DNA of 45,442 bases from Thermococcus sp. JdFR-02 (GCA_002009975.1 MTLP01000001.1:1-45442), one strand, 5' to 3'; shown: positions 8,917-35,476, counted from the first letter of the stretch. A program made the numbers and translations. Notes: generated from the sequence alone by a model not told the origin.

Positions 8917-8920
8917 GATT

Positions 8921-14903: not shown

Positions 14904-15373
14904 CTCTCAACCCTCACGTTTATTCTCACTATTGTATCGTCATAGAAGAGGGTTCCATTAATTTTAACAAAGTTCATTTTTGTTATAAGCTCTTCTTCAA
15001 TAAAAGTTTCTATGCTCTCTGCAAGCGTTTCATTGTTTATACTTGAATAGGGTGTTGATATCAAGATAGAGATGTTTAATTCATTATCATTTTGCACAAG
15101 ATTAAGCCTAACAACTCTTAAACGCGGATTTTGGCCATCTAAAGACATCAATATGCTGTTCAAAGTTGAATAGGGATATTTGTCTGAAAAGACACCAGTA
15201 TTTAAATAATCGCAGGCATGAGAAGCGGAAGCTCTAACATAGCTAACTACCGAAATAATCTTATTTTCTTCAAAATAGCTTGGGGTAAGTAATGCCACTA
15301 CCATTAGTATCAGGATAAATATGAATAGCATTTCTATAGCGCTCTGGGCTTTTTTACCCTTCAACTTTAACAT
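14900..15373 (-). CDS. Type IV pilin-like protein
   Basis: KKA|QSAIE + hydrophobic helix. Confidence 0.82.
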   Translation of the reverse strand: MLKLKGKKAQSAIEMLFIFILILMVVALLTPSYFEENKIISVVSYVRASASHACDYLNTGVFSDKYPYSTLNSILMSLDGQNPRLRVVRLNLVQNDNELNISILISTPYSSINNETLAESIETFIEEELITKMNFVKINGTLFYDDTIVRINVRVER

Positions 15374-15782
15374 AAAGCATCCCTTCATTCTCATCATAAT
15401 AAGCTACGAGCCAAAACTCCTCTTCACTGCTTAAGGTTACATTGGAAGTATATAATGGGACGGTTGAATTCCTTACAATCCAAAAGCTCCTGCCATTTAC
15501 ACTCGCATTTACGGTGATTGTATTTTCTGTTCCATTGAATATTACCCTAATACTACCCCCATCCAAATTTGGAGCAATCTCTTTTATCTTATACCCTCTA
15601 CCAGTCGCATAAACCTTGCTCACATGATCAGAAAGCGATATTGAAAATATCTTAACATTAGTTAATACATCAAGTTCTTCAGAATGGGAAATTTCAGTAG
15701 TAGCTAAGTAGGTGAGGTTTGTAATAGTCACGATTATCATCAACACAGCAAACATCAAATCTATGCTAAGCTGTCCCCTCAT
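15354..15782 (-). CDS. Type IV pilin-like protein
   Basis: MRG|QLSID + hydrophobic helix. Confidence 0.82.
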   Translation of the reverse strand: MRGQLSIDLMFAVLMIIVTITNLTYLATTEISHSEELDVLTNVKIFSISLSDHVSKVYATGRGYKIKEIAPNLDGGSIRVIFNGTENTITVNASVNGRSFWIVRNSTVPLYTSNVTLSSEEEFWLVAYYDENEGMLYVKVEG

Positions 15783-15784
15783 AT

Positions 15785-16405
15785 CTACCCACCAGGGTTA
15801 ATGTTTATCCTTAACTCGCTAGAAGTTATATTAAACGTCCACATTTCATTCCTATCTGGATTCCATTCAACTACTATCTTTACTTTGTTAGGAAGTTGAG
15901 TTGCATTCAAAACTATTCCATAATAGGTATTGCTTCCTGAAGTTACACTTCCGCTTGGATCATAAGCTGTTGGATCATTCAAGGTTTTTGCATATAATGA
16001 GAGTGCCCTAAAGACATTTTTCTTAATGGTACCATTATCCGCGAAATACAACTTACGGGTTGTGCTGTCCACTATTGCTACGTAAGTGTAATTTGACTGG
16101 TAACTTATGAAAATTTGAGGAGTTCCTGTCATGTTGAAAGCTTTTTTTAGTGAATCACTATTTCTTAAGTATCTCAATGTGACATAGGTTGTTGCTTTAG
16201 AACCTGAGCCTTGAGCATAAACTTGAGAGATTGTGTTGGAAATAGAGTTTGCAAAGCTTCTAGCCTCTAAACTAGCATCCACCCTCAAAAGTTCAACAGC
16301 TTGAGATTCTTGGGTGAATGTTACGTTGCTGAGAGAATAAGCTAACATCATGAGTATTATGCTGAATATGAACATAAATTCCAGGGAAATTTGACCTTTT
16401 TTCAT
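15785..16405 (-). CDS. Type IV pilin (DUF361-type class III signal)
   Basis: MKKG|QISLEF canonical QxSxE motif. Confidence 0.88.
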   Translation of the reverse strand: MKKGQISLEFMFIFSIILMMLAYSLSNVTFTQESQAVELLRVDASLEARSFANSISNTISQVYAQGSGSKATTYVTLRYLRNSDSLKKAFNMTGTPQIFISYQSNYTYVAIVDSTTRKLYFADNGTIKKNVFRALSLYAKTLNDPTAYDPSGSVTSGSNTYYGIVLNATQLPNKVKIVVEWNPDRNEMWTFNITSSELRININPGG

Positions 16406-16455
16406 AATCCTCACTTCTCAGAATACTATACGGTCAAAAAAGTATTTAATAATTG

Positions 16456-17076
16456 TTATTCACTATTGCTGGTATCTTTCTCATTTTTGACTATTGCAAA
16501 AGTCGTCATGCCAACTCTTCTTATCAAGACTCCAAAATATCCATGGGTGAAGATTTTAAATTTGTACTTATTGCTATCGAGAGAGTGCGTTTTTATCAAT
16601 TGCCTCAGCTCATCTATGAAAAACTGGGTCAATTGGTAGTATCCAAAATCTAGAACTTCCCTCTTGTACCTCTGCAAAAACAAGATCAAAGGTAAAATAC
16701 TAATGCCTAAAATAAACAGAGGTTCATTTAGTAGAACTGAAGCTCCAATGCTTGAAATAAACAGAATTAGTATAAGCAAAATCCCAACATTGACGTAATT
16801 CTTGGTTTTCTTTATGTAACGAACTTTTTTCTCCCATATGTTCAGCAGCGCTGGATTATAGAAATCAAATGCCGTATGCCTCTTTCCTTTTTGAATCCTC
16901 TTTTTAATCAAATCATCCCAATCATCTTCATAATAAATAATCTCTCCCCTGTTTTTTGCTCTCTCAGCATCAAGAGATGAAATTATCCTTATTATATCTT
17001 CAGCACTTTCGTGGGCTATATGCGAATACACCTCTTTTTCATCAAGGTCTAAAGCAACATCTATTGAGTCCTTCAT
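16456..17076 (-). CDS. Hypothetical membrane protein
   Basis: Two adjacent TM segments; ATGA-type overlap with upstream tubulin-family gene. Confidence 0.75.
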   Translation of the reverse strand: MKDSIDVALDLDEKEVYSHIAHESAEDIIRIISSLDAERAKNRGEIIYYEDDWDDLIKKRIQKGKRHTAFDFYNPALLNIWEKKVRYIKKTKNYVNVGILLILILFISSIGASVLLNEPLFILGISILPLILFLQRYKREVLDFGYYQLTQFFIDELRQLIKTHSLDSNKYKFKIFTHGYFGVLIRRVGMTTFAIVKNEKDTSNSE

Positions 17077-18164
17077 TTAACCCCACCTGCATAAATATCA
17101 TCAAAATCTGGCAATCCGGACAAAAGCTCTGTCTTTTTCGTTTTAGCCTCTTTTTTGGCTTCAATAAAAGATTGGGCATATTTCTTAGCAGTTATCACTA
17201 TATCCTCAATGCTTTTGCTCTCATATATTCCGCTTAATAAAGTCACAACCTCTATTTCCTTCTCCCTCGGATCTGGATAAAAGCCTCTAAAGATCTGTCT
17301 TCCCTTAATTTTGTTTGTTAAGTAGCTTAAAGCATCAAATATCTCATCAGCCCTTAACACATATGGAGGACCGTGTACAGCAACTAAAGCATATAACGCT
17401 GACTCTATGCTCGCATCTAAGTAAAGCCCTTCGTTTTCAAAGGATTTTAGAATCAATCTTGAGAGGTTTTTAACACGAGAAGGTTCTTCCTTTGCATAAC
17501 CAATTGTTGCAAAGCTTCCAAATGCCTTTAGAACAAACTTCAAATCACTCGCATCTAAAGTCTGCTCCCCAGGGACATCGACTAAGCTCAAAAGAGAAGC
17601 TATCCTCTCCACTATCGTGTAGTTTATCTTCTCATAAGCTTTGCTTATATCGTAAGCACTTTCTTTAAGCTTGTTGTTGTCAATTGCTATAATAGAGTCT
17701 GCAATTTTTGAAAGCTTATCTATTGTAATTGCAGCGTTTATCGTAGGTCTTATACCCTCCTCTCTTAGTGGCAGCGCTCCAATAGCAACCACTAAAGAGT
17801 CTGGATATTCACTTTTTAGGGCTTTGGCTAACACAGGGGTTCCTCCAGCACCAGTACCTCCACCAAATCCGAAGGTTAGGAAAAATATATCCACGTCTTC
17901 ATAACCAACTATGGAATCTATTTCCATCATAACTACGTTTAAGTCTCTCCTCATAGCATCTCTTCCTAACACAGGATTTCCATTTACTCCCTTTCCTCCA
18001 ACTATGCTCTCACCAATCAAGATTCTACGCTCATGAGGGATGTGCTTTAAATACTCTAAATCACTCTTTGAAGTGTTTATAGCAATAGCTTCAAAGTCCA
18101 CGAGGGAGAATATGTCTGCAATTTTAGTTCCGCATTGACCGATTCCTATTATTAAAGCCCTCAT
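17073..18164 (-). CDS. Tubulin/FtsZ-superfamily GTPase, CetZ-like
   Basis: GIGQCG, AINT, GGGTGAG signature, DN, T7-like EQTLDASD; lacks FtsZ N-terminal extension. Confidence 0.9.
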   Translation of the reverse strand: MRALIIGIGQCGTKIADIFSLVDFEAIAINTSKSDLEYLKHIPHERRILIGESIVGGKGVNGNPVLGRDAMRRDLNVVMMEIDSIVGYEDVDIFFLTFGFGGGTGAGGTPVLAKALKSEYPDSLVVAIGALPLREEGIRPTINAAITIDKLSKIADSIIAIDNNKLKESAYDISKAYEKINYTIVERIASLLSLVDVPGEQTLDASDLKFVLKAFGSFATIGYAKEEPSRVKNLSRLILKSFENEGLYLDASIESALYALVAVHGPPYVLRADEIFDALSYLTNKIKGRQIFRGFYPDPREKEIEVVTLLSGIYESKSIEDIVITAKKYAQSFIEAKKEAKTKKTELLSGLPDFDDIYAGGVK

Positions 18165-18168
18165 TTCA

Positions 18169-20421
18169 TCACCTCACAAACTCCACACTCAAATCGCTCA
18201 GATCAACAACACCATTCGAGTTCTTATCCTCGTAAGATACTACCAAAGCTCTTCCTTTGAGATACTTGATTAGACCAGACTCAAAGATCTCAACTACAAC
18301 ATTATCCAACCCTTTTTCATAGAACACAAACAGCACATATCCCATCTCGGTCTTTCCTGGAGCCAAGATCACAGTGTTTGAAACATCGTAGGTTTTGTTC
18401 TCCAGGTTTATAGTTCCATTTTTAACCTCTAACTTTACATATGGGTTATATTCCTCCAAGTTCAGGCTAAAGTCCGTCAATATTATATAATTCAAGTCCC
18501 CAATTTCCTCGAACTTCTCAACGCTGACGTTTGCCTCAAAGAACTTCTCTATTGAATCTTTCACCTTTATTGCGGTATCTTCTCTATCATCGATATAGAG
18601 CACGGCAAATTTTTCATCCCTTATTCTTCTCACAACATCGTAAAGGTTCGTCTTTGGTATGAACTTGAATTGAGAGAGATACATGGTAGCTAAGGCTAAG
18701 TCGATTACCGTTTTACCCCACACGCCATCATGCTCTTTTTCCATAACCCATTCCAAGGTTTCTTGTTTGTAATCATAGCCAAATTTAGCCAAAACCTCTG
18801 TAGCCCTGATAGTCAGCTCAACAGTAGGCTCTTCCTTGTATTGGAAAACTCCAAATAGATAATGCTCTTTCATGTTAGCCCATCCACCATCGGTTCTTTG
18901 CTCGATAAGCCACTCTAAATGTGATTGAAGTTCTTCCTTTGTTGAAATGTTTTGAAGGGCTTCAAGAACCTCCAAAGTTACTGAAACTTCTGAAGGTAGC
19001 ATGTAGGAATAGCTTTTTGTTTCAATATACGTTCCCCATCCCTCACTGGAAATTGAGAGTAGCCATGATTTTGCTTCTTCAATATCTGGATCATCTGATG
19101 AAACTCCCAATGCCATCAAAGCTTTCACAGCAAGTGCAGTATCAAAGGGCTGAGGACCTAAAAAGTTGCCCCATTTACCATTGCTAAGCTTTATGCTCTT
19201 TATTAATTCTATATGCTCCTTCTTTTCCTCTTCACTCAACATATCAAACTCTGAGAGCGTCAATAAAGCGTATATGTATGGCGAATAAATTTCTCTCTCT
19301 TCTTTAACCATCAATGTTAATGTGGGAAGTCTTTCTTTCATCCAGTTAAGCCCATTCTCTATGCTCACATCTCTAAAGTAGCACAGCCTTAAAGCTTTTA
19401 GTGCATAATAGGTTGTTTTTTCGTTTGAGGGGAATCCCCTAATATAGCTCCATCCACCATCAGGATTTTGGGCTTCTTTTAAAGCACCGCAGGATTCCTT
19501 GAAGGGATTTTCTAAGCCAGAGCTTAATTTATCACTAACCAGTGAAAAGCTCAAAGTTGCATAGGCAGAGGCTTTGACGATTTCACTTGATTTGAACAAT
19601 CCGCTCTCATCCTTCCAGTAAAACATCTCTTCTCCTTCTTTTAAATCCTCAAGCAAAATCAATGCCTTTGCAACATCAAAGTTTACATCCTCATAACTCA
19701 CAAGAACAAAGGTCAAAAATGCTCTCTCAGATGTTGGGATACCCTTTTCAGAGAAGAGATACTCCTTTACGAGACCTACCATAAAATCATAATCATAGGG
19801 ATAACCAACGCTTTTGTACGCCAAGATTCTTAATCCAAGGGCAGTGTAGTTGCTAATTCCACCGATGTCTGCATTTTTCAAGTAAATTATGGCATTTTTG
19901 ATAATCGGATTCCTCCATATATAACCATTCTCTCCTAAAGCCCACACCGCAAGTACAGTTGGATAAAACTCAGTGCTGGTATCTTTTACGTAGCCCCAAG
20001 CTTCTCCATTATAGGCTTCCAAAAGGAAATCAATCCCATGATCAAGAGAATGCGAAACTTTAGAATACATCAGAGAGCCTTTTTCATAGACGTTTAATGC
20101 TCTTTTAAGGGCAATGAGAGCGTAGGAAGTGTCAACGACATTACTCGCACTTCCATTTGTATAACCCCATCCACCATCATCGTTTTGATATTCCAATAAA
20201 GTGTTCATGAAATAGTCAATATCTCCTGAGATATTGCCCTCAACTTTTTCCTTTGCATCTATTAAAGCCAACAGAGATAGGCTTAAATCCTGAGTGCGGA
20301 CTATAAGCGTTTCAGCCTCGGATAAAAACTCAACTGATCCATCTAACAAAGGCTTAGCACTCACAGGTACGTAAGAAATAACCATGATTACAACCAGTAT
20401 TAATGAAAGCACGCGCTTCAT
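18169..20421 (-). CDS. Secreted prenyltransferase/squalene-cyclase-like repeat (alpha-alpha toroid) protein
   Basis: Signal peptide; repeated QNxDGGW / T..A..AL motifs; C-terminal DKNSNGVVD Ca-binding-like loop. Confidence 0.82.
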   Translation of the reverse strand: MKRVLSLILVVIMVISYVPVSAKPLLDGSVEFLSEAETLIVRTQDLSLSLLALIDAKEKVEGNISGDIDYFMNTLLEYQNDDGGWGYTNGSASNVVDTSYALIALKRALNVYEKGSLMYSKVSHSLDHGIDFLLEAYNGEAWGYVKDTSTEFYPTVLAVWALGENGYIWRNPIIKNAIIYLKNADIGGISNYTALGLRILAYKSVGYPYDYDFMVGLVKEYLFSEKGIPTSERAFLTFVLVSYEDVNFDVAKALILLEDLKEGEEMFYWKDESGLFKSSEIVKASAYATLSFSLVSDKLSSGLENPFKESCGALKEAQNPDGGWSYIRGFPSNEKTTYYALKALRLCYFRDVSIENGLNWMKERLPTLTLMVKEEREIYSPYIYALLTLSEFDMLSEEEKKEHIELIKSIKLSNGKWGNFLGPQPFDTALAVKALMALGVSSDDPDIEEAKSWLLSISSEGWGTYIETKSYSYMLPSEVSVTLEVLEALQNISTKEELQSHLEWLIEQRTDGGWANMKEHYLFGVFQYKEEPTVELTIRATEVLAKFGYDYKQETLEWVMEKEHDGVWGKTVIDLALATMYLSQFKFIPKTNLYDVVRRIRDEKFAVLYIDDREDTAIKVKDSIEKFFEANVSVEKFEEIGDLNYIILTDFSLNLEEYNPYVKLEVKNGTINLENKTYDVSNTVILAPGKTEMGYVLFVFYEKGLDNVVVEIFESGLIKYLKGRALVVSYEDKNSNGVVDLSDLSVEFVR

Positions 20422-24992: not shown

Positions 24993-25244
24993 TCACGATT
25001 CAGTATCTTTTCCATGTGCAAGCCTCTCTTTCAGCTCTCCCTCCGTAAGATACTCAATTTTGTTTGAATCACCAATAATGTACGGTTCTCTATGTTTGTG
25101 TTGTATTTTCTGATCAATGTAAAATGCTGTTAGAAGTATTATAACACCAATAATTTCAAATGACCCAACTTTCTCGTTTTCGGATAAAGGAATGCATAAA
25201 AGAACATAAAAAATAAAGATTGCAATCCAATATTTTATTTTCAC
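24993..25244 (-). CDS. Small 2-TM protein, YIIGDS family (copy 3)
   Basis: Two TM helices then PYIIGDSNKIEYLTEGELKERLAHGKDTES. Confidence 0.75.
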   Translation of the reverse strand: MKIKYWIAIFIFYVLLCIPLSENEKVGSFEIIGVIILLTAFYIDQKIQHKHREPYIIGDSNKIEYLTEGELKERLAHGKDTES

Positions 25245-25250
25245 AATTCC

Positions 25251-25512
25251 TCACCTTATCTTTTTGTTTAGGATTTCTTCAAGCTCATCTTGAGTCAAAT
25301 AAACCACCTCATTCGAATCCCCAATAACATATGGAGTTTTTATGTCAAAACCACCCAAAATTATATACGCTATGATAAGTGGAGTGCATAGGAATACTGC
25401 AATTAAGGCAAAACCAACAATCAAAGACTCCATTATATAACCCGCTCCTAATGAAGTCATAAAATACAGAAAAAAACAAGAAAAAGAGAGCATTCTTAAC
25501 TCGTCTCTTCAT
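25251..25512 (-). CDS. Small 2-TM protein, YIIGDS family (copy 2), probably frameshifted in T7 tract
   Basis: PYVIGDSNEVVYLTQDEL tail; RBS-associated ATG at 25512 is out of frame by one T. Confidence 0.6.
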
Positions 25513-25539
25513 CAGTCATCCCCCATACTCTCCCTGTAC

Positions 25540-25776
25540 TCACGACTCAATATCTTTTCCATGTCCAAGCCTCTCTTTCAGCTCTTCCTCCGTAAGATAC
25601 TCAACCTTACTTGAATCGCCGATGATGTATGGATTTCTCTCTTTTCTTTTGTCTTTTTGCAATAGACCAACTACAATCATGCTGGCAACTAATATATAAA
25701 GTACAATTTCCCTGGTTTCGACTAAATATAATAAAATTAAAAAGGAAATTGCAAGTAGTATCTTAATTCTCCTCAT
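25540..25776 (-). CDS. Small 2-TM protein, YIIGDS family (copy 1)
   Basis: TM region then PYIIGDSSKVEYLTEEELKERLGHGKDIES; RBS GGTGA. Confidence 0.78.
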   Translation of the reverse strand: MRRIKILLAISFLILLYLVETREIVLYILVASMIVVGLLQKDKRKERNPYIIGDSSKVEYLTEEELKERLGHGKDIES

Positions 25777-25781
25777 TTAAA

Positions 25782-25900
25782 TCACCCAAATAGCTGTTGT
25801 AATATTTCCTTGACAATCTTACTTCCATATTTGGCAATTAACGGCAAACTTTTTTGTCCTACCGATTTAACAAAAGGTATTATAGCTCCAGTGCTGAGCT
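25782..25900 (-). pseudogene. Orphan C-terminal stub, cationic amphipathic peptide
   Basis: ...GAIIPFVKSVGQKSLPLIAKYGSKIVKEILQQLFG*; stop overlaps RBS of next gene. Confidence 0.5.
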
Positions 25901-26422
25901 CATATGAATTTGTTGATTTGTTGTTTTCAAAAGTTTTAATGCACCGAGGATGTGAATTGTGCCAAAGGCTAAAATTGCCAATGTTTGGAAAGGTGACTCT
26001 GTAAATGTCAGTAGCATCCCACTCCAGAACAAGAGGAGGTAAGTCATTATACTGCCTTTCCACTTACCTGTAAGCTGTACAATCAGATAAAACGCAACAC
26101 TCACCAAGACAATTCTTGATGAAAATGCTAAGTATATTAATGCTCCAAGGGTCAATCCATCCACCAGATGAAGAGGTCTTAATGCCTTGGCGAGTATTAG
26201 GAATCCAAAGATTACAAGCCAGCCCAATATGCTACTTTTTGTTCCTGCCATTATTGTACTCCAGAATAAGAGAACATGTGGCAAGCCCAAATAAAGATTC
26301 AGCAGATACTCAAGCCGCTTCTGCTCAAGGGCACTAAATGTAGCAAAGTATACTAACATAAAAACAAGCAACAACACAGGAATAAAAACTAAAAGAAAGG
26401 CAGGAATTTCCCCAAAATTCAT
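25880..26422 (-). CDS. Multi-pass membrane protein (putative immunity)
   Basis: ~6 TM segments; start overlaps stop of GDNNLIVGDES stub. Confidence 0.75.
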   Translation of the reverse strand: MNFGEIPAFLLVFIPVLLLVFMLVYFATFSALEQKRLEYLLNLYLGLPHVLLFWSTIMAGTKSSILGWLVIFGFLILAKALRPLHLVDGLTLGALIYLAFSSRIVLVSVAFYLIVQLTGKWKGSIMTYLLLFWSGMLLTFTESPFQTLAILAFGTIHILGALKLLKTTNQQIHMSSALEL

Positions 26423-26454
26423 GACTCATCCCCCACTATAAGGTTGTTGTCTCC
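26419..26454 (-). repeat. Conserved tail repeat GDNNLIVGDES*
   Basis: GGAGACAACAACCTTATAGTGGGGGATGAGTCATGA. Confidence 0.85.
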
Positions 26455-26488
26455 CTAGTTCTGTTATTTCCTTTTAGATTCATCTCAA

Positions 26489-26698
26489 TCACGTAAGTAA
26501 ATCTTCTGTTGGTGTTAGGAGATATGCTATGAATATTAAGCCTGCGAACACAATGAAAACAAAGTGAACTACGAATAAGATTTCTGAAAGAGTCATGTTT
26601 TCAAACAAATCCGTAGCTAGTGCTGCAACAAACCAAATAAAAATGTAAAGAATAAGGAGCCATCTAGAAAGGACTTTAGGTATCTTGACCTTCATCAA
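26489..26698 (-). CDS. Small 2-TM protein, PTEDL family
   Basis: Two TM helices; ends LLTPTEDLLT; paralog of 26780-26986. Confidence 0.72.
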   Translation of the reverse strand: MMKVKIPKVLSRWLLILYIFIWFVAALATDLFENMTLSEILFVVHFVFIVFAGLIFIAYLLTPTEDLLT

Positions 26699-26724
26699 TT
26701 ATCCCCCACTATTAAGTTGTTACC
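26695..26724 (-). repeat. Conserved tail repeat GNNLIVGDN*
   Basis: GGTAACAACTTAATAGTGGGGGATAATTGA. Confidence 0.85.
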
Positions 26725-26779
26725 TCATCTAATATTCCCTTTGGATTCATTTCACTCACGTAAGTTAGTTGATCAGGTT

Positions 26780-26986
26780 CTAACGTAAATCTTCTGTTGG
26801 TGCTAAAAGATTCCAAATATACAAGAACACTAGTATTACTAGGAATGTTATAGTAGCTAATCCTAAAATCTCTTTAATACTGGCTTTCTCTGGCCATGCA
26901 AAAACAGAGAGAAAAAGAGAAATTATGTATATCTTGAGGAGATTTTTTGCATCTTTCAAGTCCGTACTCAAACTTAGAGGCATCAC
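26780..26986 (-). CDS. Small 2-TM protein, PTEDL family
   Basis: Two TM helices; ends LLAPTEDLR. Confidence 0.72.
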   Translation of the reverse strand: MMPLSLSTDLKDAKNLLKIYIISLFLSVFAWPEKASIKEILGLATITFLVILVFLYIWNLLAPTEDLR

Positions 26987-27015
26987 TCATCACCCACTAT
27001 TAAGTTGTTATTCAC
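26983..27015 (-). repeat. Conserved tail repeat VNNNLIVGDE*
   Basis: GTGAATAACAACTTAATAGTGGGTGATGAGTGA. Confidence 0.85.
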
Positions 27016-27470
27016 ATTTGTGACGGCTTCTGTCCCACCTCTTTCCGTATTATGTGAGAGTAAAGTGCTAGGACTGAGTAGGCGAAGTACACCACACCTA
27101 ACGCAATCCCTACTTTCACTGAACCAAGCTTCCAGTAAGTCATGACAAACGACAGTGCACACAGGCCGATCAAATACATCACACACAGTGCTGGACTCTC
27201 TGAGATTTTTCCAAGCACTCTCCCATTTATTTTGTTCTTCGCTATTAACAGCATGGACGCAAACGCCCCAACATATCCAGCGAGTTCATAAACTAGACCA
27301 AGGACTAACAGGATAGTCATAACCGTTGCTAGAGAGAGCACAGGTATAGTTTCATTTTTCCAATTCTTGGAGACTCCTTCTGCTACAATCATATAACTTA
27401 CTGAAACAATGAAAATAAAGTTAAGGACAAAGTAAACTAGGAATATGTCCACTAGACCCACTAATATCAC
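27012..27470 (-). CDS. Multi-pass membrane protein (putative immunity)
   Basis: ~5 TM; similar layout to 27538-27945. Confidence 0.75.
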   Translation of the reverse strand: MILVGLVDIFLVYFVLNFIFIVSVSYMIVAEGVSKNWKNETIPVLSLATVMTILLVLGLVYELAGYVGAFASMLLIAKNKINGRVLGKISESPALCVMYLIGLCALSFVMTYWKLGSVKVGIALGVVYFAYSVLALYSHIIRKEVGQKPSQM

Positions 27471-27473
27471 CCC

Positions 27474-27530
27474 TTAATCCTCAATTATTAAGTTATTATC
27501 TCCTGAATCATTGGGAAGTTCCACGTCAAA
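27474..27530 (-). repeat. Orphan stub FDVELPNDSGDNNLIIED*
   Basis: Matches tail of 27960-28451 cassette (PPDDPGDNNLIIGDN). Confidence 0.8.
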
Positions 27531-27537
27531 TCTTAAA

Positions 27538-27945
27538 TTATTTAGTCCTTAGGAGCAGTGCCATATAAGCTCCGTGAATCAATGCTGAAGTCAATATGGC
27601 GAATTTCACTGGGAGTTCGAAGGTTGTTAGTATGTATGCACAGATCAATAACATGGTCAATATGTATAGAATGCTGTAGTTGAATTTTCTGGCTAGGATT
27701 CCTAAGGTCTTGTCTTCTAGGCTGGTCTTAGTCATTGCTATTCCATATGCTAGGAAGGCAAGGGCCCCAGCTCCTTCGTGAAGTTTGCCAAAGATTAAAG
27801 TTATTGTCAGCATTGTGGGGGCGGAGAGGATGGGAGTCCTGGTATCAACCTTGGACTTCGGAGTTCCAATCACCTGAAGGATAAAAATTAGGAGAATAAA
27901 GAAAGCATTTGCAGAGATATAGAATCCAACAATTCCAACTCCCAT
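27538..27945 (-). CDS. Multi-pass membrane protein (putative immunity)
   Basis: ~5 TM; RBS GGTGAT directly after cassette stop. Confidence 0.78.
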   Translation of the reverse strand: MGVGIVGFYISANAFFILLIFILQVIGTPKSKVDTRTPILSAPTMLTITLIFGKLHEGAGALAFLAYGIAMTKTSLEDKTLGILARKFNYSILYILTMLLICAYILTTFELPVKFAILTSALIHGAYMALLLRTK

Positions 27946-27959
27946 CGAATATCACCTTG

Positions 27960-28451
27960 TTAGTTATCTCCGATAATGAGGTTGTTATCTCCTGGGTCGT
28001 CTGGAGGTATTGGTTCATTCATTACATGCCATACGAATTCTATATATAATACAAATATCCCTGCAATACCCCCAGCTGTTTTTGATGATACCTCAAGACC
28101 ATACCTCTCTGCAGATTTTTGAATTGCTTTGGTAAGACCTACCCATCCAGCTACTGTCTTGTAGTCACTAACTTTTCCCACTACCTCATTCTTAATTTTA
28201 ACAACTACACCGTATGCTCCCTTTACAACATCCCAAACCCCAGTTGGCTCTGGATTCATTTGTATTACGAACATTGTTGGGTTTTCTAGTTGATTTAGAT
28301 AAGCTTTGATTGCTATTGGTGTTCCTGGGTTCATGTCACTTAAATCCACTGGAATCCTCTCCTGTAATTCATCATTAATCGGAATCGTGAAAGTGAACGT
28401 TCCAGTGGAGTATGAGCTTAAACTCAAACTGCTCGGATTCGGAATTACCAA
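27960..28451 (-). pseudogene. Orphan alternative C-terminal cassette 3
   Basis: No signal peptide, starts mid beta-domain; Gly/Ala-rich hydrophobic helices, ends DNNLIIGDN. Confidence 0.65.
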
Positions 28452-28951
28452 GTTATCACTTCTTGGATATTGCCTGTTTTATAATTATGTAAGTATCTGA
28501 TTGATAGGAGAGCATAAACTACCAGAGGAGGTATTATTCCGATTATGTGGCTGGTTCTTAGTTTTCTGCAGAGCAACTTTAGCATTCCCACTGACATTAG
28601 TCCAAGTATGAGAGTGTTCACGAGTATTATACGTTCCTTCAAGTTCATTGAGAACCTTATAAACCTCTCACGCTGGTATTTTAGTCTAGCTGCTAAAATC
28701 GATGCCAAAGCAGTTGTCATAAGGATTCCCATTATTGCCGGGATTGAGTTGTTTAATCTTATTGAGAGTAGCATTCCAAAAATTCCCATCAGTACCAGGT
28801 ACGGAAAAACAACAATATCCACACCAAACTCTGGCAACTTACTTTCCACTTCGCCAACCAAGGGACGCATCCCCTCGTACTTAAAAACCAACACTAAAAT
28901 GAGAAAAACAAAAACAAAAAGAACCATGCCAAAATATACCTCACACATCAT
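28445..28951 (-). CDS. Multi-pass membrane protein (putative immunity)
   Basis: ~5 TM; likely ATG at 28951/28948 just after TDGNSICGDGG* stub. Confidence 0.75.
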   Translation of the reverse strand: MMCEVYFGMVLFVFVFLILVLVFKYEGMRPLVGEVESKLPEFGVDIVVFPYLVLMGIFGMLLSIRLNNSIPAIMGILMTTALASILAARLKYQRERFIRFSMNLKERIILVNTLILGLMSVGMLKLLCRKLRTSHIIGIIPPLVVYALLSIRYLHNYKTGNIQEVITW

Positions 28952-29023
28952 TTCAACCACCATCCCCACAGATCGAGTTTCCGTCAGTTTTAGTGTAGTT
29001 GTGTAGAGAATCATAAGATACAG

Positions 29024-29515
29024 CTAAGTTGTCAGTCTCGTTGATCTTTCTTGGAGTGTTAGTATTTTTAGTGTAATAATGTACTGTGATATATAAATTA
29101 GTGTGAATAATAGCAATGTTCTTGTCAAATTGCATTGTTCTCTTAGCTCCCAGTATACTTGAAGAGGAACTAGGTAAATAAAGAAGTACAAAACTGTGAC
29201 AATGACTTTTATTAGATTGTCTGAAATATGGAAGTGTCTTAGTAACAGGTATATCCCAAACCATATCATGAAAGATAGTAACAAATTCCAGACTACCGAG
29301 GCATCTGGAGTTAAGTAGTATGTAACATATGTAGAATTAATGTACACGAGAATTGGAAGAGATATCCCAAATGCTTTAAGCAACTTTGTATTTCCCTTTT
29401 CCCGCTTCCATTTTTCCGAATAGTACCAGATTGTTAAGATAAAACCAAAAATAAGTGAGAAATATAAGAAAGCAGACACAAATTGATACTCATGAAATAC
29501 TTCAAAGCACGACAC
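29024..29515 (-). CDS. Multi-pass membrane protein (putative immunity)
   Basis: ~5 TM; RBS GGAGGTGA formed by last codons of upstream cassette. Confidence 0.75.
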   Translation of the reverse strand: MSCFEVFHEYQFVSAFLYFSLIFGFILTIWYYSEKWKREKGNTKLLKAFGISLPILVYINSTYVTYYLTPDASVVWNLLLSFMIWFGIYLLLRHFHISDNLIKVIVTVLYFFIYLVPLQVYWELREQCNLTRTLLLFTLIYISQYIITLKILTLQERSTRLTT

Positions 29516-29519
29516 ATCA

Positions 29520-30461
29520 TCACCTCCTAACGGTGTCCCCTATAATTTCATTGTTATCCTGTTCTTGACCTCCGGGTATTGGTGGTCCAATGATACCCTT
29601 GTACATAAAATAAAAGAAGTCAATAGTTAAATGTTTCAAGGTAGAGAGGATAAATCCCACACCCTCTGGAATATCTGCAAGTATATGTATCTTTTCTCTT
29701 GTGTTTTCAGTCTCATAATAAGGAACTAAGGTTACATCATCCCCAATATAATTAGGTAGTACAGTTAAGTTTACATAGATCCTATAAGACATCCCATCCG
29801 GTTGTGTTAGGTACATGGTGTAAAATTCATCGCTAAATATATCTGTTGCCAAAGAACTATCAGCACTTATAACAAAAGAGAGAGTGTCTTCAACATTGCT
29901 CTGAGTTAAATTTGTTGCTCCAGTATCTATTCTTACACTTTTAGGTGGTCGATTAAACCTTGTTTGGGGATACAATGGATATTCTCCAAAAAATATCTCT
30001 CTGATGCTCACTTCCACTGAATTACTAGGTTCAAATATTGTACTCACATAGATCTTACATGAAATTATAGATTCAGTTCCAGGAGCACTCACTTGTACAA
30101 TTTTTGGAGTACATATCATCCAGGCTTCTATCTCTTCCTGTGAATTCACCGTTATCACTTTTTCATCCTCCTCCTGACCGTTAACTACGAGGTAAAACTT
30201 GTAAGTGCCCGGATTTGCGAAAGTGAAGTCAAACCAGTCCTGGTATTCCTCAAGAGGATCAAAGTCAACCTCAGCCTCCTTGACCTTAATAACACTGTGC
30301 CACACATCATCTGGCGAAGTGTAAACATAATACACCCTAACTGGAATAGAGTACCTTGGGGCGTTTTCATCATTCCTAACAGTAAGAGTGAACCTCACCT
30401 TAGCACCCACTGAGACATCACCACTAACTATACTGTTTTTGCTTTCTCTCCAACGCTTCAA
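29520..30461 (-). pseudogene. Orphan alternative C-terminal cassette 2 (CARDB-like domain + variable tip)
   Basis: VSVGAKVRFTLTVRN...FTFANPGTYKFYLVVNG resembles Ig repeats of the 1002-aa protein; no credible start; ends DNNEIIGDTVRR. Confidence 0.68.
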
Positions 30462-30888
30462 TTTCCTTAATAGCCTGCTGAAGCATCCTCAAGGACTTCC
30501 AATAAAGAATGAATGTAAGCACTGCCACTATCCAGACAAGAATTTCTTTTATTCCTGCTAGGAAAATCATCACTAAAACCATGAGTGCTGGAATGTGAAT
30601 ATGTTTCCATTTCTGTCTTAGATAATCGACGTCTAAAATGCCCCTTACAACTCTATAAATCAAGTAAATTGCGAGAATAGAAGCAAGCACTGGTGCAGCT
30701 CCTTTTCCTTGGGCTGCTGAAACATTACTGAATGCATATAGTAAAGAGAACCACGGGGCTAGTGTCATTAAAGTAACACTACCTTCATAATTCCCCCTCA
30801 TGCTCTGAAGTACCCATGTAATTATTAGAATAACAACATAAAATAGTGAGATTGCAAAAAATACAAAAAAAGGAAACTCTCCGTACAT
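30424..30888 (-). CDS. Multi-pass membrane protein (putative immunity)
   Basis: ~5 TM; follows TDGNKVIGG* stub. Confidence 0.78.
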   Translation of the reverse strand: MYGEFPFFVFFAISLFYVVILIITWVLQSMRGNYEGSVTLMTLAPWFSLLYAFSNVSAAQGKGAAPVLASILAIYLIYRVVRGILDVDYLRQKWKHIHIPALMVLVMIFLAGIKEILVWIVAVLTFILYWKSLRMLQQAIKEIEALERKQKQYS

Positions 30889-30893
30889 GCCCG

Positions 30894-31030
30894 CTACCCT
30901 CCTATGACTTTGTTTCCATCAGTTTCTACAAAATCTTCTGAATACTTCCACAACCACCACACCTCTTTTGCAATTCTAACTAACTTTTCAATTGCAATCC
31001 AGATAGCATTTTTAGGGGTTTCTATGACAG
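30894..31030 (-). pseudogene. Orphan C-terminal stub
   Basis: Open frame without start: VIETPKNAIWIAIEKLVRIAKEVWWLWKYSEDFVETDGNKVIGG*. Confidence 0.65.
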
Positions 31031-31032
31031 AT

Positions 31033-31413
31033 TTATATTCCTCCTTTTTGCTCTTGTTGAGTTAGATACCTTAAACTATTTCTAATGTGGATAAGTTCTT
31101 GTCTGATTTGCCATCTCTCAATTAAAGAGTACAACAACACGAGAGCGACAAAGTCTCTTAGACTTCCACTCATAGCAAAAGATATTGCAATAATCCCTAA
31201 CAAAATATACCTAACTACTAATTCTCCGGGATCCTGGTCAATATTTCCAAGATTAAGCTCCTTTTTAAGACTTTGAATTTCATTTTTAACCGGATAAAAA
31301 GCTGAGAGGAATGCAAATAGAATAAAGGATAAAAAATGAATCTCCTGTTTACTAAAAGCATATGTCAGTAGTGATAACACTGAAATCCCTATTGAGATAA
31401 TATCAAACTTCAT
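31033..31413 (-). CDS. 4-TM membrane protein (putative immunity)
   Basis: Two TM hairpins; follows cassette 1. Confidence 0.75.
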   Translation of the reverse strand: MKFDIISIGISVLSLLTYAFSKQEIHFLSFILFAFLSAFYPVKNEIQSLKKELNLGNIDQDPGELVVRYILLGIIAISFAMSGSLRDFVALVLLYSLIERWQIRQELIHIRNSLRYLTQQEQKGGI

Positions 31414-31434
31414 ATGTACCACCCTCCAAAATTG

Positions 31435-31998
31435 TCACTTTCCAGATATATCTTTCCAAATACCTTGACCAATATTTCTAACAAACAGAAATACTTGGAT
31501 AGCTGTTTTTACTGGTTCTGGTATTGGGGTCATTTCGACCATCACAGTTCCAATGTATTCTACTGGAGCATATGCCAATCCAAGGGGTGCAACTATCATT
31601 AATCCACCTTTTTTAATACCTCCTTCGGCATCCTCTCTCCAGTACTCACTTCCTTCATACCTTGCTATTATAACGTTGTCTAGGATTTTATCCCCGAGAT
31701 TTTCTATCCACAAGGTTATGCTTAAGTAGTGTGGTGTGTCTGGTCTGTCCCTGGTATAGTAACAATTCCCGCCAGAACAACTCCAGTGAGTCGTATAAGG
31801 TGTCAAGTCTCTGACGTCATCTAATCCTAAGGCACTTGCCAATCTTTCATCCAAAGGAACCAATGATGGATTACAATTCATGCTTGCAATAACGTTCCCC
31901 ACGGGTATCACTTCCACCCTAACCTCGCTCCAGTGCTCTTTCCCTTTTTCATTTGGCTTTCCGTTATAGTTGTTAAGTGTAAATAAAAGCCAATCCAA
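31435..31998 (-). pseudogene. Orphan alternative C-terminal cassette 1
   Basis: Begins LFTLNNYNGKPNEKGKEHWSEVRV, homologous to internal LFLDNYDGEPNGIGEEHWDEVRV of the 1002-aa protein, then diverges. Confidence 0.75.
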
Positions 31999-32011
31999 AG
32001 GGCACCTACTA

Positions 32012-32356
32012 TCACTTGGTTATATTCGATTTATCCTCGGGCCTTCTTGTTAGTATTGCAAGAATTCCTAAGCCTGTTGAGATGCCCCACAACGTTCCAA
32101 GGGAGAGAGCCAGAATTAGATTATCGGTTACTGCCCATGCTGGAAGGACATAGAGTGGAAAGCTAACTACAATGCCTATAATGGCTTTCTCCTTTAGGGG
32201 CAACGCTTTCTTCCAGTAAAATGTAATGAACCCGATAAGATATGCAGTAATCAGGAACTGTGGGAGTAAATATTTCGCAAGATAAAACGCGCTCGCTACC
32301 GCGATAAGAAACATAAAAAAGGCAGGAAGTACAAATTTGTTCTTGGTTATCGGCAT
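32012..32356 (-). CDS. 4-TM membrane protein (putative cognate immunity)
   Basis: Four hydrophobic segments; RBS GGAGGTGA is the TGG AGG TGA end of the large gene. Confidence 0.78.
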   Translation of the reverse strand: MPITKNKFVLPAFFMFLIAVASAFYLAKYLLPQFLITAYLIGFITFYWKKALPLKEKAIIGIVVSFPLYVLPAWAVTDNLILALSLGTLWGISTGLGILAILTRRPEDKSNITK

Positions 32357-32361
32357 TGTAC

Positions 32362-35300
32362 TCACCTCCAGCTCCATGCTCGTCTGATAAAGTCAGCGAT
32401 TACTGGTGCCAACTCTCCAAGTCCCTTTAGAACCTTTCCTGCACGTATGAGCTTTGCTGAAACAATAATTGCTTTAACTTCACCACCAATTAATACAGCA
32501 TTCGTTCCAACGTCCACTATTACGTCACTGTTGTCCTGCTTTATATTCACCACATCGAAGCCTGTGAAAGTAATGTCTTCTGCGTTCTGTGGAGAGATTA
32601 TGTATTCTATTGATACTCCAACGTAAGTTCCAAACAAGTCTTTCTCAAGTGTTATTAATCCCGTATGGGCAGTGTTTTTGAAAACTATTTCTGCAGTTTG
32701 GGAAGGTTCCACCTTAGCTGGATATTCAATCATCCATGCAGATTCTAATGATTCCATGAACTCTTGATTCTCAATTGACCAGTTTTCAACACTTACAGAG
32801 TTTATACTAACATCATTTTGAGTAGGATTGTAAATAATAGCCCTACAAACCAATTTAGCCTTGTATTCTATGCCGTTCCAGTTAAATTCGGGATCATTGC
32901 ATTCGAATGCTACTTGTTGTAGTTCTGTTTCGTTGCTTGGGTGTACTATCACTCTTACTTCGTCCCAGTGCTCTTCGCCTATTCCGTTAGGCTCACCATC
33001 GTAGTTGTCGAGGAAGAGGGTGTAAGTGTGGGTTCCAACGCCAGAAACTTGCAGGCTGAATGAAGTTAAAGTGTAATCCTGAGCACTCGCTGGTAATGTT
33101 GTACTAACCCTCTTGATCACTGCACCATCCTCATCCACAACATAACCAAACAATGAATAAGCATTGCCCAAGTAATTCGAAGCTTTAACCGTAAAAACCA
33201 CAGTACCACCACCCACAATCTCCGTTGGCATTGCCTCCAAACTAACACCAAACTGAGCATTCGCCGGCACTACATTTACAGTGCCCTCCCTGTAAGACGC
33301 AGTCCCCCAAGGCACCGAAACCATAACCCCCCACACATATCTTCCCACTTTTTCCGGAGTCCAGTAAAGCTTAAACGTTGCACTCTTTCCACCATTCAAT
33401 GAAACAGACTCACTATAAACTTCAGAACCATTAACTTTTAACTTTAGTGTGAAACTCTTAGACGAGCTGTAAGTATTCTTAACTTTGACCCTAAATTCTG
33501 CAGTGTCACCAACTCTCGGTGGATTTGGATAAAGTTCAACGCTTTCGATTGTTAAGTTGCCGGAGTCTGTACTACTGTCATCGTCTTCCACCTTTATTGT
33601 TCCCACTGCATATGTTGTCCCATCAACCTTTGCGTAGTAGGTTCTTTCGCCTGGTGTATTGAAAGTTAACTGCAGAGTCTTGGTTTTAGTTTCGCCAGCT
33701 GGAACTGTGAGTGTATCCTCTTTAGATTTCCCGCCAGCAGTGACCAGCAAATTGAACGTTTTATCACTCGTCATGTAATTGGTTATCGTGAAGGTAAACT
33801 CTACTGGTTCATTAACTTTCACAATAGCCTTTGAAACGGAAACTTGAGAATCGAACAGCTGAATTGTTTTTGAGACTGTTTTTATAACCATTGCCTCCTC
33901 ACCACAGCCTGCTGGAGCGCTTAAAACTTCCTCTCCACCGGGAACACTGTTTATATTGTTGCACCATTTTGTGTAGGTGACTTTTATGGTTTTGCTGAGC
34001 GTTATCTCCTGAGCATTGCTTGGAATGTCCTCAGTGAAGTAACTTCCCACGGGCAAAGTTATTGCTCTACTTTCCCCAGCTCCCAAGTCAAATGGTCCGT
34101 ATTCTTTATTCCCATCAATGTAAATGTTGATGTTTGTTGCCTGAGCATTCTCTGCCCTAACAGTGATCTGAACCTTATAGGAAGCTTTATCTGGAGTTAT
34201 TGAATTAGCAATAATTTCACCATTGATGTACAGAACAGTCTCTCCAGTGTTTGGATCTAAGGCTTCTTGGGTAAGTGGATCTTCTAGGTTTTCACCAGTG
34301 GTGAAAGTGCTTGGAGGCTTAATTGGTGGGAATGGCTTGATAGGACTGTCACATGAATAGCTTATCATCGAAGAAACTTTAACTGCGATTAATGCTTCCT
34401 TCAACTCTGCAATCTTTCCGTTTAAAATTAATTTTAACTCCTCATTATCATTCCCAAAGTCTTTTGCTAACAGTAGCGTTTTTATTTGTGAAGCCTTTTC
34501 GTAAGATTCTAAAGCCTTCCAGTAATATTGTACTTTGTATGTCTCATAGCATATAACTCCATTCTTAATCTTACTTCTTTTTTCTGTGCCACCATCTAAG
34601 ATCAAAATACCGTTAGAACTGTAAGTACTCCCAGAACTACTAATCACTCCATAAATTTTATCCTTAAGCCTTTGAATTGTCGTCAATTGCTCATCAAGCG
34701 TTCCATTATAGTAAGCTTTGTAAAAATTAGTCCACTCCCCCTGAAGTTGGGGCAAAATTATATTCTCTCCTTCGGGAATGCTAGCATTCTCCGCATTACT
34801 CCACTTCCATTTCTCCAGTGCCCATGTTTCGTAGTAGTTGTATTTGAAGCCAACCTCAATGAAAGCTAAGCTGAAATCTTCCAAAAACTTGGTTAAATTA
34901 AAATCTTCATTAATTTGATCAGAATTCTCAATAATGTACTGTTCTAAGGCTTTAATCTCATCATCACTCCAGCCCTGTTCCTTCAAAGCCTGGATTGTCT
35001 CCTCAGGCAAACCATTTTGAGAAATATTTTGAGCCAGCTCCCTAAGCTCCTCTGCAGTATAGTAAGTCTTAACTCCCGAATTTTTAATCTCCTCCAGACT
35101 CTGCCATATTAATGCTGAAATTTGAGCAGCATTTTGTGAACCATTTTGAGAATTCTTGATTAGCTCCTGAGCTAAATTTTCAATTTGATTTGGGTCATTA
35201 GTATTGTTCAGCTGAACTATTAATTCTGCTTCTCTGTTTAAGATTTTCCAGAATTCTTCATAGGCTTGGTTATCTAATGCTGAGACATAAATACTCTGAT

Positions 35301-35370
35301 TTTCTGCTACAATAAAACTTAAACTAATCATTAGATATATTATGACTAAGCTTACTATTTTTCTCATCAT
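32362..35370 (-). CDS. Large secreted protein: helical N-domain, Pro linker, CARDB/Ig-like repeats, amphipathic C-terminal tip (putative polymorphic toxin)
   Basis: Signal peptide; Q/E/N-rich helices; PIKPFPPIKPP; repeats such as PNPPRVGDTAEFRVKVKN; cationic hydrophobic C-terminus. Confidence 0.85.
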   Translation of the reverse strand: MMRKIVSLVIIYLMISLSFIVAENQSIYVSALDNQAYEEFWKILNREAELIVQLNNTNDPNQIENLAQELIKNSQNGSQNAAQISALIWQSLEEIKNSGVKTYYTAEELRELAQNISQNGLPEETIQALKEQGWSDDEIKALEQYIIENSDQINEDFNLTKFLEDFSLAFIEVGFKYNYYETWALEKWKWSNAENASIPEGENIILPQLQGEWTNFYKAYYNGTLDEQLTTIQRLKDKIYGVISSSGSTYSSNGILILDGGTEKRSKIKNGVICYETYKVQYYWKALESYEKASQIKTLLLAKDFGNDNEELKLILNGKIAELKEALIAVKVSSMISYSCDSPIKPFPPIKPPSTFTTGENLEDPLTQEALDPNTGETVLYINGEIIANSITPDKASYKVQITVRAENAQATNINIYIDGNKEYGPFDLGAGESRAITLPVGSYFTEDIPSNAQEITLSKTIKVTYTKWCNNINSVPGGEEVLSAPAGCGEEAMVIKTVSKTIQLFDSQVSVSKAIVKVNEPVEFTFTITNYMTSDKTFNLLVTAGGKSKEDTLTVPAGETKTKTLQLTFNTPGERTYYAKVDGTTYAVGTIKVEDDDSSTDSGNLTIESVELYPNPPRVGDTAEFRVKVKNTYSSSKSFTLKLKVNGSEVYSESVSLNGGKSATFKLYWTPEKVGRYVWGVMVSVPWGTASYREGTVNVVPANAQFGVSLEAMPTEIVGGGTVVFTVKASNYLGNAYSLFGYVVDEDGAVIKRVSTTLPASAQDYTLTSFSLQVSGVGTHTYTLFLDNYDGEPNGIGEEHWDEVRVIVHPSNETELQQVAFECNDPEFNWNGIEYKAKLVCRAIIYNPTQNDVSINSVSVENWSIENQEFMESLESAWMIEYPAKVEPSQTAEIVFKNTAHTGLITLEKDLFGTYVGVSIEYIISPQNAEDITFTGFDVVNIKQDNSDVIVDVGTNAVLIGGEVKAIIVSAKLIRAGKVLKGLGELAPVIADFIRRAWSWR

Positions 35371-35410
35371 CCATCACCCTATCAGTAATCATGAAAGAAA
35401 TAACTACGAG

Positions 35411-35476
35411 CAAATATAAATACTTTTTCTATGCAAATTTTGCTTATCACTTTAGATAGTATGCAAAATATGCATA
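35411..35476 (-). promoter_or_regulatory. BRE/TATA promoter with two upstream palindromic operator-like boxes
   Basis: Minus strand AGAAAAAG-TATTTATAT; TATGCA-N5-TGCTTA (35430-35446) and TATGCA-N5-TGCATA (35460-35476). Confidence 0.6.

Follow-up and report, generated by a model that had tools for sequence, protein, structure and literature searches.

The subject of this report is a 10.8-kb gene island on the minus strand of a 45,442-nucleotide (nt) stretch of DNA from Thermococcus sp. JdFR-02 (GCA_002009975.1 MTLP01000001.1:1-45442; hereafter the window), and it is as good as certain that this island is a VARTIG module, the variable gene array of Thermococcales described in 2021 by Makarova, Wolf, Karamycheva and Koonin (PMC8416519). 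The locus is a further example of the published class and nothing different in kind. A modular organisation is well supported by sequence comparison: a single expression site would carry one C-terminal module (tip) and its cognate membrane gene, new pairs would be imported at motif borders, and displaced pairs would be trimmed to short stubs. An initial annotation of the window had already proposed one main gene with swappable C-termini, matched partner membrane genes and an array of orphan modules, and that structural reading holds on comparison with relatives. The novelty that it implied does not stand, as the 2021 paper had already described this class of module with its terminal motif and had drawn the analogy with polymorphic toxins (PMC8416519).

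VARTIG is one of few candidate systems of conflict or self-recognition in hyperthermophilic archaea. What is added here is detail rather than a new kind of system, namely the module borders, a table of pairings, the silent status of the small immunoglobulin (Ig)-type open reading frames (ORFs) and a possible strain-level switch. The borders, pairing and silent status make it easier to plan tests of competition, immunity and recognition in Thermococcus kodakarensis or another tractable relative, and a pair of close strains that seemingly differ in their expressed cassette is natural material for such experiments.

Identity and distribution

In the published class a large arCOG07710 protein of more than 500 amino acids (aa) is the first gene of a co-directional array, with a signal peptide in 19 of 30 cases, a conserved N-terminal region bearing a GN motif and one invariant serine, roughly five Ig-like domains with CARDB among them, and two cysteines in the most distal Ig domain; a D[ND]NxxxG[GD] motif after a hydrophobic stretch is found in 31 proteins, not all, and the downstream genes encode smaller paralogues of the last ~200 residues together with mostly membrane proteins (PMC8416519). 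All of these features recur in the window, with the qualification that the terminal motif is not on the main protein. The first gene of the array (32362-35370) encodes the complete, secreted 1002-aa Ig/CARDB-like protein recognised in the initial annotation: a basic stretch precedes an N-terminal hydrophobic segment that is signal-peptide-like (Kyte-Doolittle peak 2.75), and CARDB is matched in 2 stretches (Pfam, E 1.4e-11). The order along the protein is signal peptide, helical N-domain (residues ~33-345), proline-rich linker, Ig/CARDB domains, distal β-sandwich (~818-944) and a 48-aa tail. Twelve related genomes have large proteins homologous to it over the full length. Homologues share a conserved N-terminal part and have unrelated C-termini, as the annotation had anticipated. 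Across 10 sequences G306, N307, S74, S85 and S167 of the N-domain are invariant, the serines being three candidates for the published one, and C824 and C842 of the distal domain are invariant in all 8 sequences compared; the translation of cassette B (see below) likewise has two cysteines there.

The end motif, D-N-N-x-x-x-G-[GD], stands at the ends of two long cassettes, B and C, and of six stubs. In six-frame translation of the whole 45-kb window its strict pattern gives 7 matches, all on the minus strand between 26.4 and 30.9 kb and none elsewhere, and this confinement to the strand of the island indicates that the layout is not due to chance. The main protein differs from the published pattern in belonging to a class without the terminal motif, having instead an internal related stretch, Q-D-N-x-D-V-I-V-D, followed by the 48-aa helical tail, and the locus as a whole differs in its unusually long tail of units made of a stub and a membrane gene (PMC8416519).

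Strong matches to the main protein are confined to the family to which the window belongs, where they occur in 11 of 24 genomes; the 16 genomes searched from four other families gave one weak match (3e-4), and the named database relatives are Thermococcus or Pyrococcus only. A family-wide search found the VARTIG N-domain in 53 of 97 species genomes, and in none of the 14 genomes of one genus (g6). This agrees with the published account of a patchy distribution limited to Thermococcales with exchange of the hypervariable C-terminus between species (PMC8416519). A literature search on VARTIG, arCOG07710 and arCOG14200 returned the original description and an editorial, and no experimental study.

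Layout of the locus

The ORF listing and stop-to-stop translation give a series without break on the minus strand from 24993 to 35370, and the island is bounded by a PIN-domain gene and an inorganic pyrophosphatase gene. It thus lies in a row of conserved core genes: S6e, eIF2-gamma and the PIN_9 protein flank it on one side, and on the other are the pyrophosphatase, an RpoE-like protein, DUF359 and S24e. Three genomes have a VARTIG array between this PIN gene and this pyrophosphatase gene, namely that of the window itself and two of another genus (G004 and G014), whose array at this site is different; in G009, of the same genus as these two, the gap between the two genes is 78 nt and the site is empty.

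The array consists of 1 main gene, 3 long cassettes, 6 clear motif stubs and 13 membrane-protein ORFs (121, 129, 154, 163, 189, 135, 152, 68, 69, 180, 78, 80 and 83 aa) with 1-5 hydrophobic segments each, counted by Kyte-Doolittle window and not by a dedicated transmembrane predictor. The number of membrane genes and their common strand are thus as first annotated, and so are the three long start-less cassettes, designated A, B and C, in which TTG is the sole early start codon, with no ATG or GTG and no signal peptide. At least seven stubs had been claimed, of which six are clear and the seventh (25508-25543) is degenerate and doubtful. Stubs encode little beyond D/G-N-N-x-h-h-G/E-[GD] and a stop, and each directly precedes a membrane ORF; one or two membrane-protein ORFs follow each long cassette. 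The features, in the direction of reading of the minus strand, are as follows.

35412..35429 (-): BRE/TATA-like (transcription factor B recognition element and TATA box) A/T-rich element ~47 nt 5' of the main ATG, read by eye against the archaeal promoter consensus
35371-35380 (-): GGTGAT Shine-Dalgarno-like stretch between the promoter-like element and the main gene
32362..35370 (-): main VARTIG large protein, arCOG07710 type, 1002 aa
32950..32970 (-): H-W-x-E-V-x-V junction motif of the main gene, left border of the exchangeable distal module
32012..32377 (-): cognate membrane gene linked to the main gene, 121 aa (or 114 aa with the second Met as start)
31438..32019 (-): silent cassette A, a distal module beginning ~28 codons before the HWxEV junction
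31915-31935 (-): H-W-x-E-V-x-V junction motif, cassette A copy
31033..31422 (-): membrane gene, 129 aa, cassette A partner
30897..30920 (-): stub D-G-N-K-V-I-G-G plus stop, directly 5' of the next membrane gene; a homology block shared with L013 ends here
30424..30888 (-): membrane gene, 154 aa, with only a stub before it
29523..30488 (-): silent cassette B, 322 open codons, a partial CARDB-like domain and a tip ending D-N-N-E-I-I-G-D
29024..29515 (-): membrane gene, 163 aa, cassette B partner, starting 4-7 nt past the cassette stop behind an exact GGAGGTGA
28962..28985 (-): degenerate stub D-G-N-S-I-C-G-D, counted among the six
28445..29014 (-): membrane gene, listed with 189 aa; translation probably begins at the Met pair 28948-28951, right behind the stub
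27963..28478 (-): silent cassette C, a conserved first half, then a variable half with a hydrophobic helix and the end D-N-N-L-I-I-G-D
28251-28268 (-): V-I-x-M-N-P junction, end of the conserved half of cassette C
27538..27945 (-): membrane gene, 135 aa, partner of the variable half of cassette C
27012..27500 (-): stub D-N-N-L-I-I-E-D (27477-27500) and membrane gene, 152 aa
26489..27012 (-): two tandem paralogous units of a stub (26989-27012, 26701-26724) and a small membrane gene (68 and 69 aa)
25880..26451 (-): stub (26428-26451) and membrane gene, 180 aa, whose ATG overlaps the stub TGA
25782..26063 (-): soluble ORF, 93 aa, overlapping the end of the 180-aa gene; no relative found, may be a tip remnant or spurious
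24993..25776 (-): three paralogous membrane genes, 78, 80 and 83 aa, with the common tail P-Y-I-I-G-D-S...E-Y-L-T
25508-25543 (-): doubtful seventh stub, degenerate

Members of the 78/80/83-aa membrane family stand behind a tip in other genomes. The I-I-G-D in the tail of these proteins echoes the end motif of the Ig cassettes. The tandem units of a stub and a ~68-aa gene (26428-27012) contain repeats that are 87-89% identical, each preceded by a V-I-x-M-N-P-like remnant, and it looks as if a variable half had been cut out between two junction motifs.

Pairing of tips with membrane genes

Pairing was examined in the window and 13 loci from 11 related genomes, in which 46 adjacent pairs of an Ig gene and a membrane gene were compared all against all, the tip being taken as the last 110 residues. 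When pairs were set against pairs, both members were homologous in 24 comparisons, the tips only in 47, the membrane genes only in 0 and neither in 964. Homologous membrane genes were thus accompanied by homologous tips in 24 of 24 comparisons, the co-variation of tip and membrane gene that the initial annotation had foreseen, and the empty membrane-only class means that a given membrane family was never seen behind an unrelated tip. This extends the published observation that certain membrane families follow certain tip branches, made where the analogy with polymorphic toxins was drawn (PMC8416519).

Individual pairs recur well outside the window. The tip of cassette A is found with its 129-aa partner in three other genomes (L013, L014 and L025), and the unit of a stub and the 152-aa gene has counterparts of 90-93% identity in two other genomes, where the gene stands behind a full tip. 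The 121-aa protein, with 3 hydrophobic segments, has only 6 relatives among 5.8 billion proteins, the named ones being Thermococcus, and some of these sit in records that also hold main proteins of the same tip class. Another membrane family lies directly downstream of this tip class in L017 and L025, an exception to the main-tip pairing that is explained by the homologue of the 121-aa gene coming second in L017.

Silent cassettes and the translation context of partner genes

A signal-like N-terminus is present in 10 of 13 large proteins and in 3 of 53 small Ig ORFs. The exceptions on both sides have ready accounts: among the large proteins without a signal, one has its start called too far upstream and two are the C-terminal halves of split genes, and the three small ORFs with a signal are N-terminal pieces of split main genes. 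This leaves a signal peptide in 0 of 50 small Ig ORFs of C-terminal type, so that none of these would be exportable by itself, which is evidence that the small Ig ORFs are a silent stock rather than secreted proteins. The onset of cassette A resembles residues 787-811 of the main protein (64% identity).

Displaced modules keep a close physical link to the membrane gene behind them. The 121-aa ORF overlaps the stop of the main gene, or begins 5 nt after it if the database form, shorter by the first 7 residues, is right, and 17 of 20 motif-ended frames are followed by an ORF whose start lies between -8 and +17 nt from the stop. With the anti-Shine-Dalgarno sequence taken from the 3' end of the G004 16S ribosomal RNA (rRNA), GGAGGTGA is matched at 6 or more of 8 positions at 13 of 20 motif ends and at 61 of 387 other ORF ends. 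The last codons and stop of motif-ended frames thus often spell a Shine-Dalgarno-like string; hence it is mainly the initiation context of the membrane gene that survives in a stub. Two other accounts were considered. That the terminal GG or GD serves as a ribosome-binding site alone has partial support; the D-N-N part varies synonymously, and one class has its Shine-Dalgarno sequence past the stop. Read-through fusing tip and membrane protein was suggested by several relatives with an in-frame partner start a short way past the stop, and was rejected as a general rule because the partner genes in the window start in other frames, some of them overlapping the stop.

All 13 membrane ORFs are uninterrupted, and where relatives exist the ratio of nonsynonymous to synonymous substitution rates (omega) is 0.12-0.56, with 0.12-0.23 for the 129-aa partner of cassette A.

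Exchange at short motif borders

The flanking core-gene DNA is 72-77% identical to G004 and G014, and the synonymous divergence (dS) is ~2-2.5 for two such genes against G004, whereas segments of the island are 86-92% identical, with a dS of 0.14-0.47 for the 129-aa and 152-aa partner genes and cassette A. A dS so far below that of the flanks suggests recent exchange. Codons 451-675 of the main gene (33346-34020) differ from those of G004, of another genus, at 19 of 675 bases, mostly synonymous, with 2 amino-acid changes in 225 codons, which means that the conserved body has also been exchanged and not the tip alone. Identity of the main protein to L015 is 66-100% per 30-residue window over residues 451-810 and 10-26% past 811, and the comparison with L013 gives a mosaic pattern.

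The published study was unable to place the recombination sites (PMC8416519); here they fall at three short motifs, namely the terminal D-N-N-x-h-h-G-[GD], H-W-x-E-V ahead of the distal domain, and V-I-x-M-N-P within tips of the cassette C class. Homology blocks against G004 and G014 have 32 ends, of which 12 are no more than 10 nt away from one of these motifs, where random placement gives 1.4; 0 of 10,000 random placements reach 12, figures to be taken descriptively. In cassette C four comparisons break at 28246-28252. Independently of the two genomes, metagenome contig L052 follows the window at 95.4% identity between 30248 and 28251 and parts from it precisely at V-I-x-M-N-P; past that point it has a third form of the variable half, a terminal motif and another membrane gene. 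The unit of a stub and the 152-aa gene is common to G004 and G014 from motif to motif (27503 to 26981/26996). A metagenome scan with cassette B returned one short contig only.

Contigs of run X9 are ~97% identical to the window on the flanks (for example 56 differences in 2063 bases) and seem to stem from a close strain. One of them connects 33571 with 30420 and omits the 3150 bases between, its shorter side being 95 letters long; at the joint, codon 23 of cassette B is in frame with codon 622 of the main gene, and to judge from this contig the main gene in the X9 strain appears to run on into cassette B, the cassette that is silent here. Another X9 contig and contigs of run X4 depart from the gene order of the window, and one of the breaks, at 26691, falls 10 nt away from a stub. 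Run X9 is registered as an RNA library, but this does not demonstrate transcription. Joints 25443/32899 and 28457/30139 have fewer than 30 letters on one side and were not relied on; a 36-letter X9 joint, 25088/27981, between the stretch of the 78-83-aa genes and the cassette C motif, may reflect the repeated coding of I-I-G-D alone and was set aside. Where runs X3, X4, X5 and X9 leave parts of the locus uncovered, this was not counted as evidence.

Some features of these data weigh against the proposed organisation. The junction motifs were chosen after the data had been seen, which makes their enrichment descriptive; the compared genomes are kin, so that the counts of pairings and borders overstate independence; and the joint of 33571 to 30420 is a single metagenome contig, placed at 90% likeness and known from its two sides only.

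Predicted mode of action

The findings can be drawn together in the following scheme. The 5'-most gene, with its promoter-like element, signal peptide and conserved N-domain, would be the expression site, and the last module of the main gene would form a cognate pair with the membrane gene that follows. New pairs would enter by recombination with DNA of other strains or species, with crossovers at the three short junctions, a mechanism that we infer. Displaced pairs would collect downstream as cassettes lacking an ATG or GTG start and a signal peptide, some of them later trimmed to a motif stub while the membrane genes stay intact with their initiation context. The exported Ig protein would present or release its C-terminal module, a β-sandwich with a hydrophobic or amphipathic helix, which may act on the membranes of neighbouring Thermococcales; the matched multi-pass membrane protein would neutralise the tip type of its own cell, and the orphan membrane genes would constitute a library of protection against the tips of neighbours. 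Taken whole, from VARTIG identity through modular organisation to toxin and immunity, this explanation is in our judgement evenly poised between right and wrong. Its functional component, a conflict system akin to membrane-targeting toxin/immunity pairs, much as the initial annotation had inferred, is a tentative prediction to which we give somewhat less than an even chance. It is favoured because the partner genes are kept intact and translatable after loss of the tip, as orphan immunity genes are, because there are many unrelated families of partner membrane proteins, each tied to one tip type, and because the tips end in hydrophobic or amphipathic helices.

The bacterial CdiA/CdiI, Rhs and MafB loci, with their orphan toxin-immunity modules, offer a parallel. 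They too have a long exported protein with a conserved body and a variable C-terminus, a cognate small gene directly downstream, start-less displaced ends that pile up behind with their partners, and short conserved motifs at the point of exchange. There is, by contrast, no relation in sequence or fold and no recognised toxin domain, the context is not one of two-partner, type VI or type VII secretion, the host is an archaeon without an outer membrane, and the partners are all multi-pass membrane proteins. Polymorphic toxins are demarcated by motifs such as VENN, PxxxxDPxGL and the like; no Pfam domain of this kind, nor one for secretion or delivery, is present, and HWxEV, VIxMNP and DNNxhhG[GD] are analogous to those motifs and not the same. 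Pore-forming colicins and class II bacteriocins have membrane immunity proteins, and resemble the present pairs in combining a hydrophobic or amphipathic helical end with an adjacent small immunity-like protein of 2-5 helices. There is no homology in Pfam or NCBIfam, and the helices here are short and come after a β-sandwich.

Structural models bear on these comparisons. Residues 750-1002 of the main protein were modelled with a mean predicted local distance difference test score (pLDDT) of 68.5 and are all-β to ~944; the tip β-sandwich (~818-944) is confident, at 63-94 per ten-residue block, and is followed by a poorly defined linker holding Q-D-N-x-D-V-I-V-D and then by two helices. The last helix of the tail has a strong amphipathic character, its hydrophobic moment reaching 0.67, and the tail as a whole bears a net positive charge and ends in a stretch rich in Trp and Arg. 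Tips of the cassette C class have a variable half without an Ig part, made up of a Gly-rich hydrophobic helix, an acidic Pro-rich stretch and the motif. By the positive-inside rule a simple stop-transfer anchor is disfavoured here, since the tail behind the helix is acidic and lacks both Lys and Arg. A resemblance of cassette C to LURP-one or scramblase-like proteins was dropped, as its best ESM Atlas score, 0.86, is under the 0.9 threshold of meaningfulness. The N-domain (window 34171-35270, residues ~33-345) was modelled as a confident helical bundle with a β-hairpin (pLDDT 78.1). Foldseek gave it no match in the PDB at E <= 0.001, the nearest being periplasmic YfdX (E 0.033, TM-score 0.5 on the target), and showed no protease-like fold; the published idea of a serine protease (PMC8416519) is neither supported nor refuted by this. 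Co-folding of the main tip (residues 800-1002, 8-row alignment) with the 114-aa partner (6-row alignment) scored 0.00 in both runs and speaks neither for nor against binding.

Several of these results tell against a toxin. No toxin family in Pfam or NCBIfam matched the main protein or any cassette, in line with the initial annotation, which had seen no nuclease-type toxin motif. The best matches of the tip in the PDB are macroglobulin (MG) domains of complement C4, the Als and ACE adhesins and pilins (E 5e-4 or weaker), which are binding folds and not killing folds; the matches are weak and generic, with no toxin among those listed by Foldseek. Lack of a toxin domain together with a binding-type fold in the variable domain weakens the case for toxin and immunity. 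The tail helices, moreover, are modelled with low confidence (pLDDT 38-62), and the orphan cassettes have an omega of 0.23-0.44, which does not separate a silent stock from working genes.

Other explanations

The same points lend themselves to a system of self/non-self recognition or adhesion, in which the variable distal Ig module would serve as ligand for the matched membrane protein, a receptor or docking partner borne by the same cell or a neighbour; kinship would be signalled by matching pairs, as when cells aggregate or exchange DNA, and orphan partners would widen the range of accepted kin. A variable Ig-like β-sandwich nearest to adhesins, pilins and complement MG domains, the strict pairing of tip type and membrane partner, and the want of a toxin domain in Pfam and NCBIfam are all in its favour. 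To our knowledge, however, recognition systems such as Ids in Proteus and TraA in Myxococcus build no long arrays of orphan receptors, and the C-terminal hydrophobic or amphipathic helices of the tips would be superfluous for a pure ligand. A diversity of non-homologous partners is also more typical of immunity proteins, and VARTIG islands hold 44 homology groups over all proteins, most of them predicted membrane proteins (PMC8416519). Recognition was nevertheless the favoured one of the three published hypotheses, the others being conflict and complement-like immunity (PMC8416519). On balance we regard recognition as rather unlikely, though well worth keeping in view. In one specific form it would be an Ig-based archaeal allorecognition, the distal module docking to the matched membrane protein on a neighbour, the expressed pair and the orphans together deciding acceptance for aggregation, fusion or DNA exchange, and new specificities being imported as motif-bounded modules during that very exchange. 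Improbable as this fuller version may be, it is a serious rival to toxin and immunity.

Surface variation against viruses or other attackers is a quite improbable third possibility. The main protein would here be complement-like or a decoy whose end is changed from the silent stock, and the products of the membrane genes would anchor each end or help to assemble it. Antigenic variation from silent cassettes is known from pilE/pilS, where, as in the present locus, a single expression site is accompanied by promoter-less, start-less partial copies that replace its end. Such a scheme would suit the absence of signal peptides from the stock, the single expression site, the likeness of the tip to complement MG domains and the differing order of cassettes between close strains. 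A resemblance of VARTIG to thioester proteins has also been pointed out (PMC8416519), but no thioester domain was found in Pfam or NCBIfam. Each cassette here, unlike those of pilS, brings its own membrane-gene partner, and an anchoring role would leave unexplained why partner genes are kept after their tip is reduced to a stub. Exchange has moreover been reported between species rather than within the cell or genome (PMC8416519), and no conversion tract was seen within the locus.

That the array is functionless debris of repeated recombination behind an ordinary surface adhesin gene is very improbable, for although no ATG or GTG begins any of the three long cassettes, several relatives have frameshifted pieces (L014, for example, has a split tip and a split partner gene) and the stubs and tandem duplicates are scar-like, all 13 membrane ORFs are open with the omega values given above, their start context is kept, and the same pairs of tip and partner recur in distant genomes.

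Other features of the window

The 44-contig assembly to which the window belongs (G000, completeness 99.99%) contains no archaeal small-subunit rRNA, which fits a metagenome-assembled genome. A separate minus-strand operon of secreted and membrane proteins lies at 8152-20421; it encodes a 750-aa secreted alpha/alpha-toroid repeat protein without the CxEQ thioester motif, a protein with a class III (pilin-type) signal peptide, a DUF2341 protein, DUF2101 and a CetZ-type tubulin.

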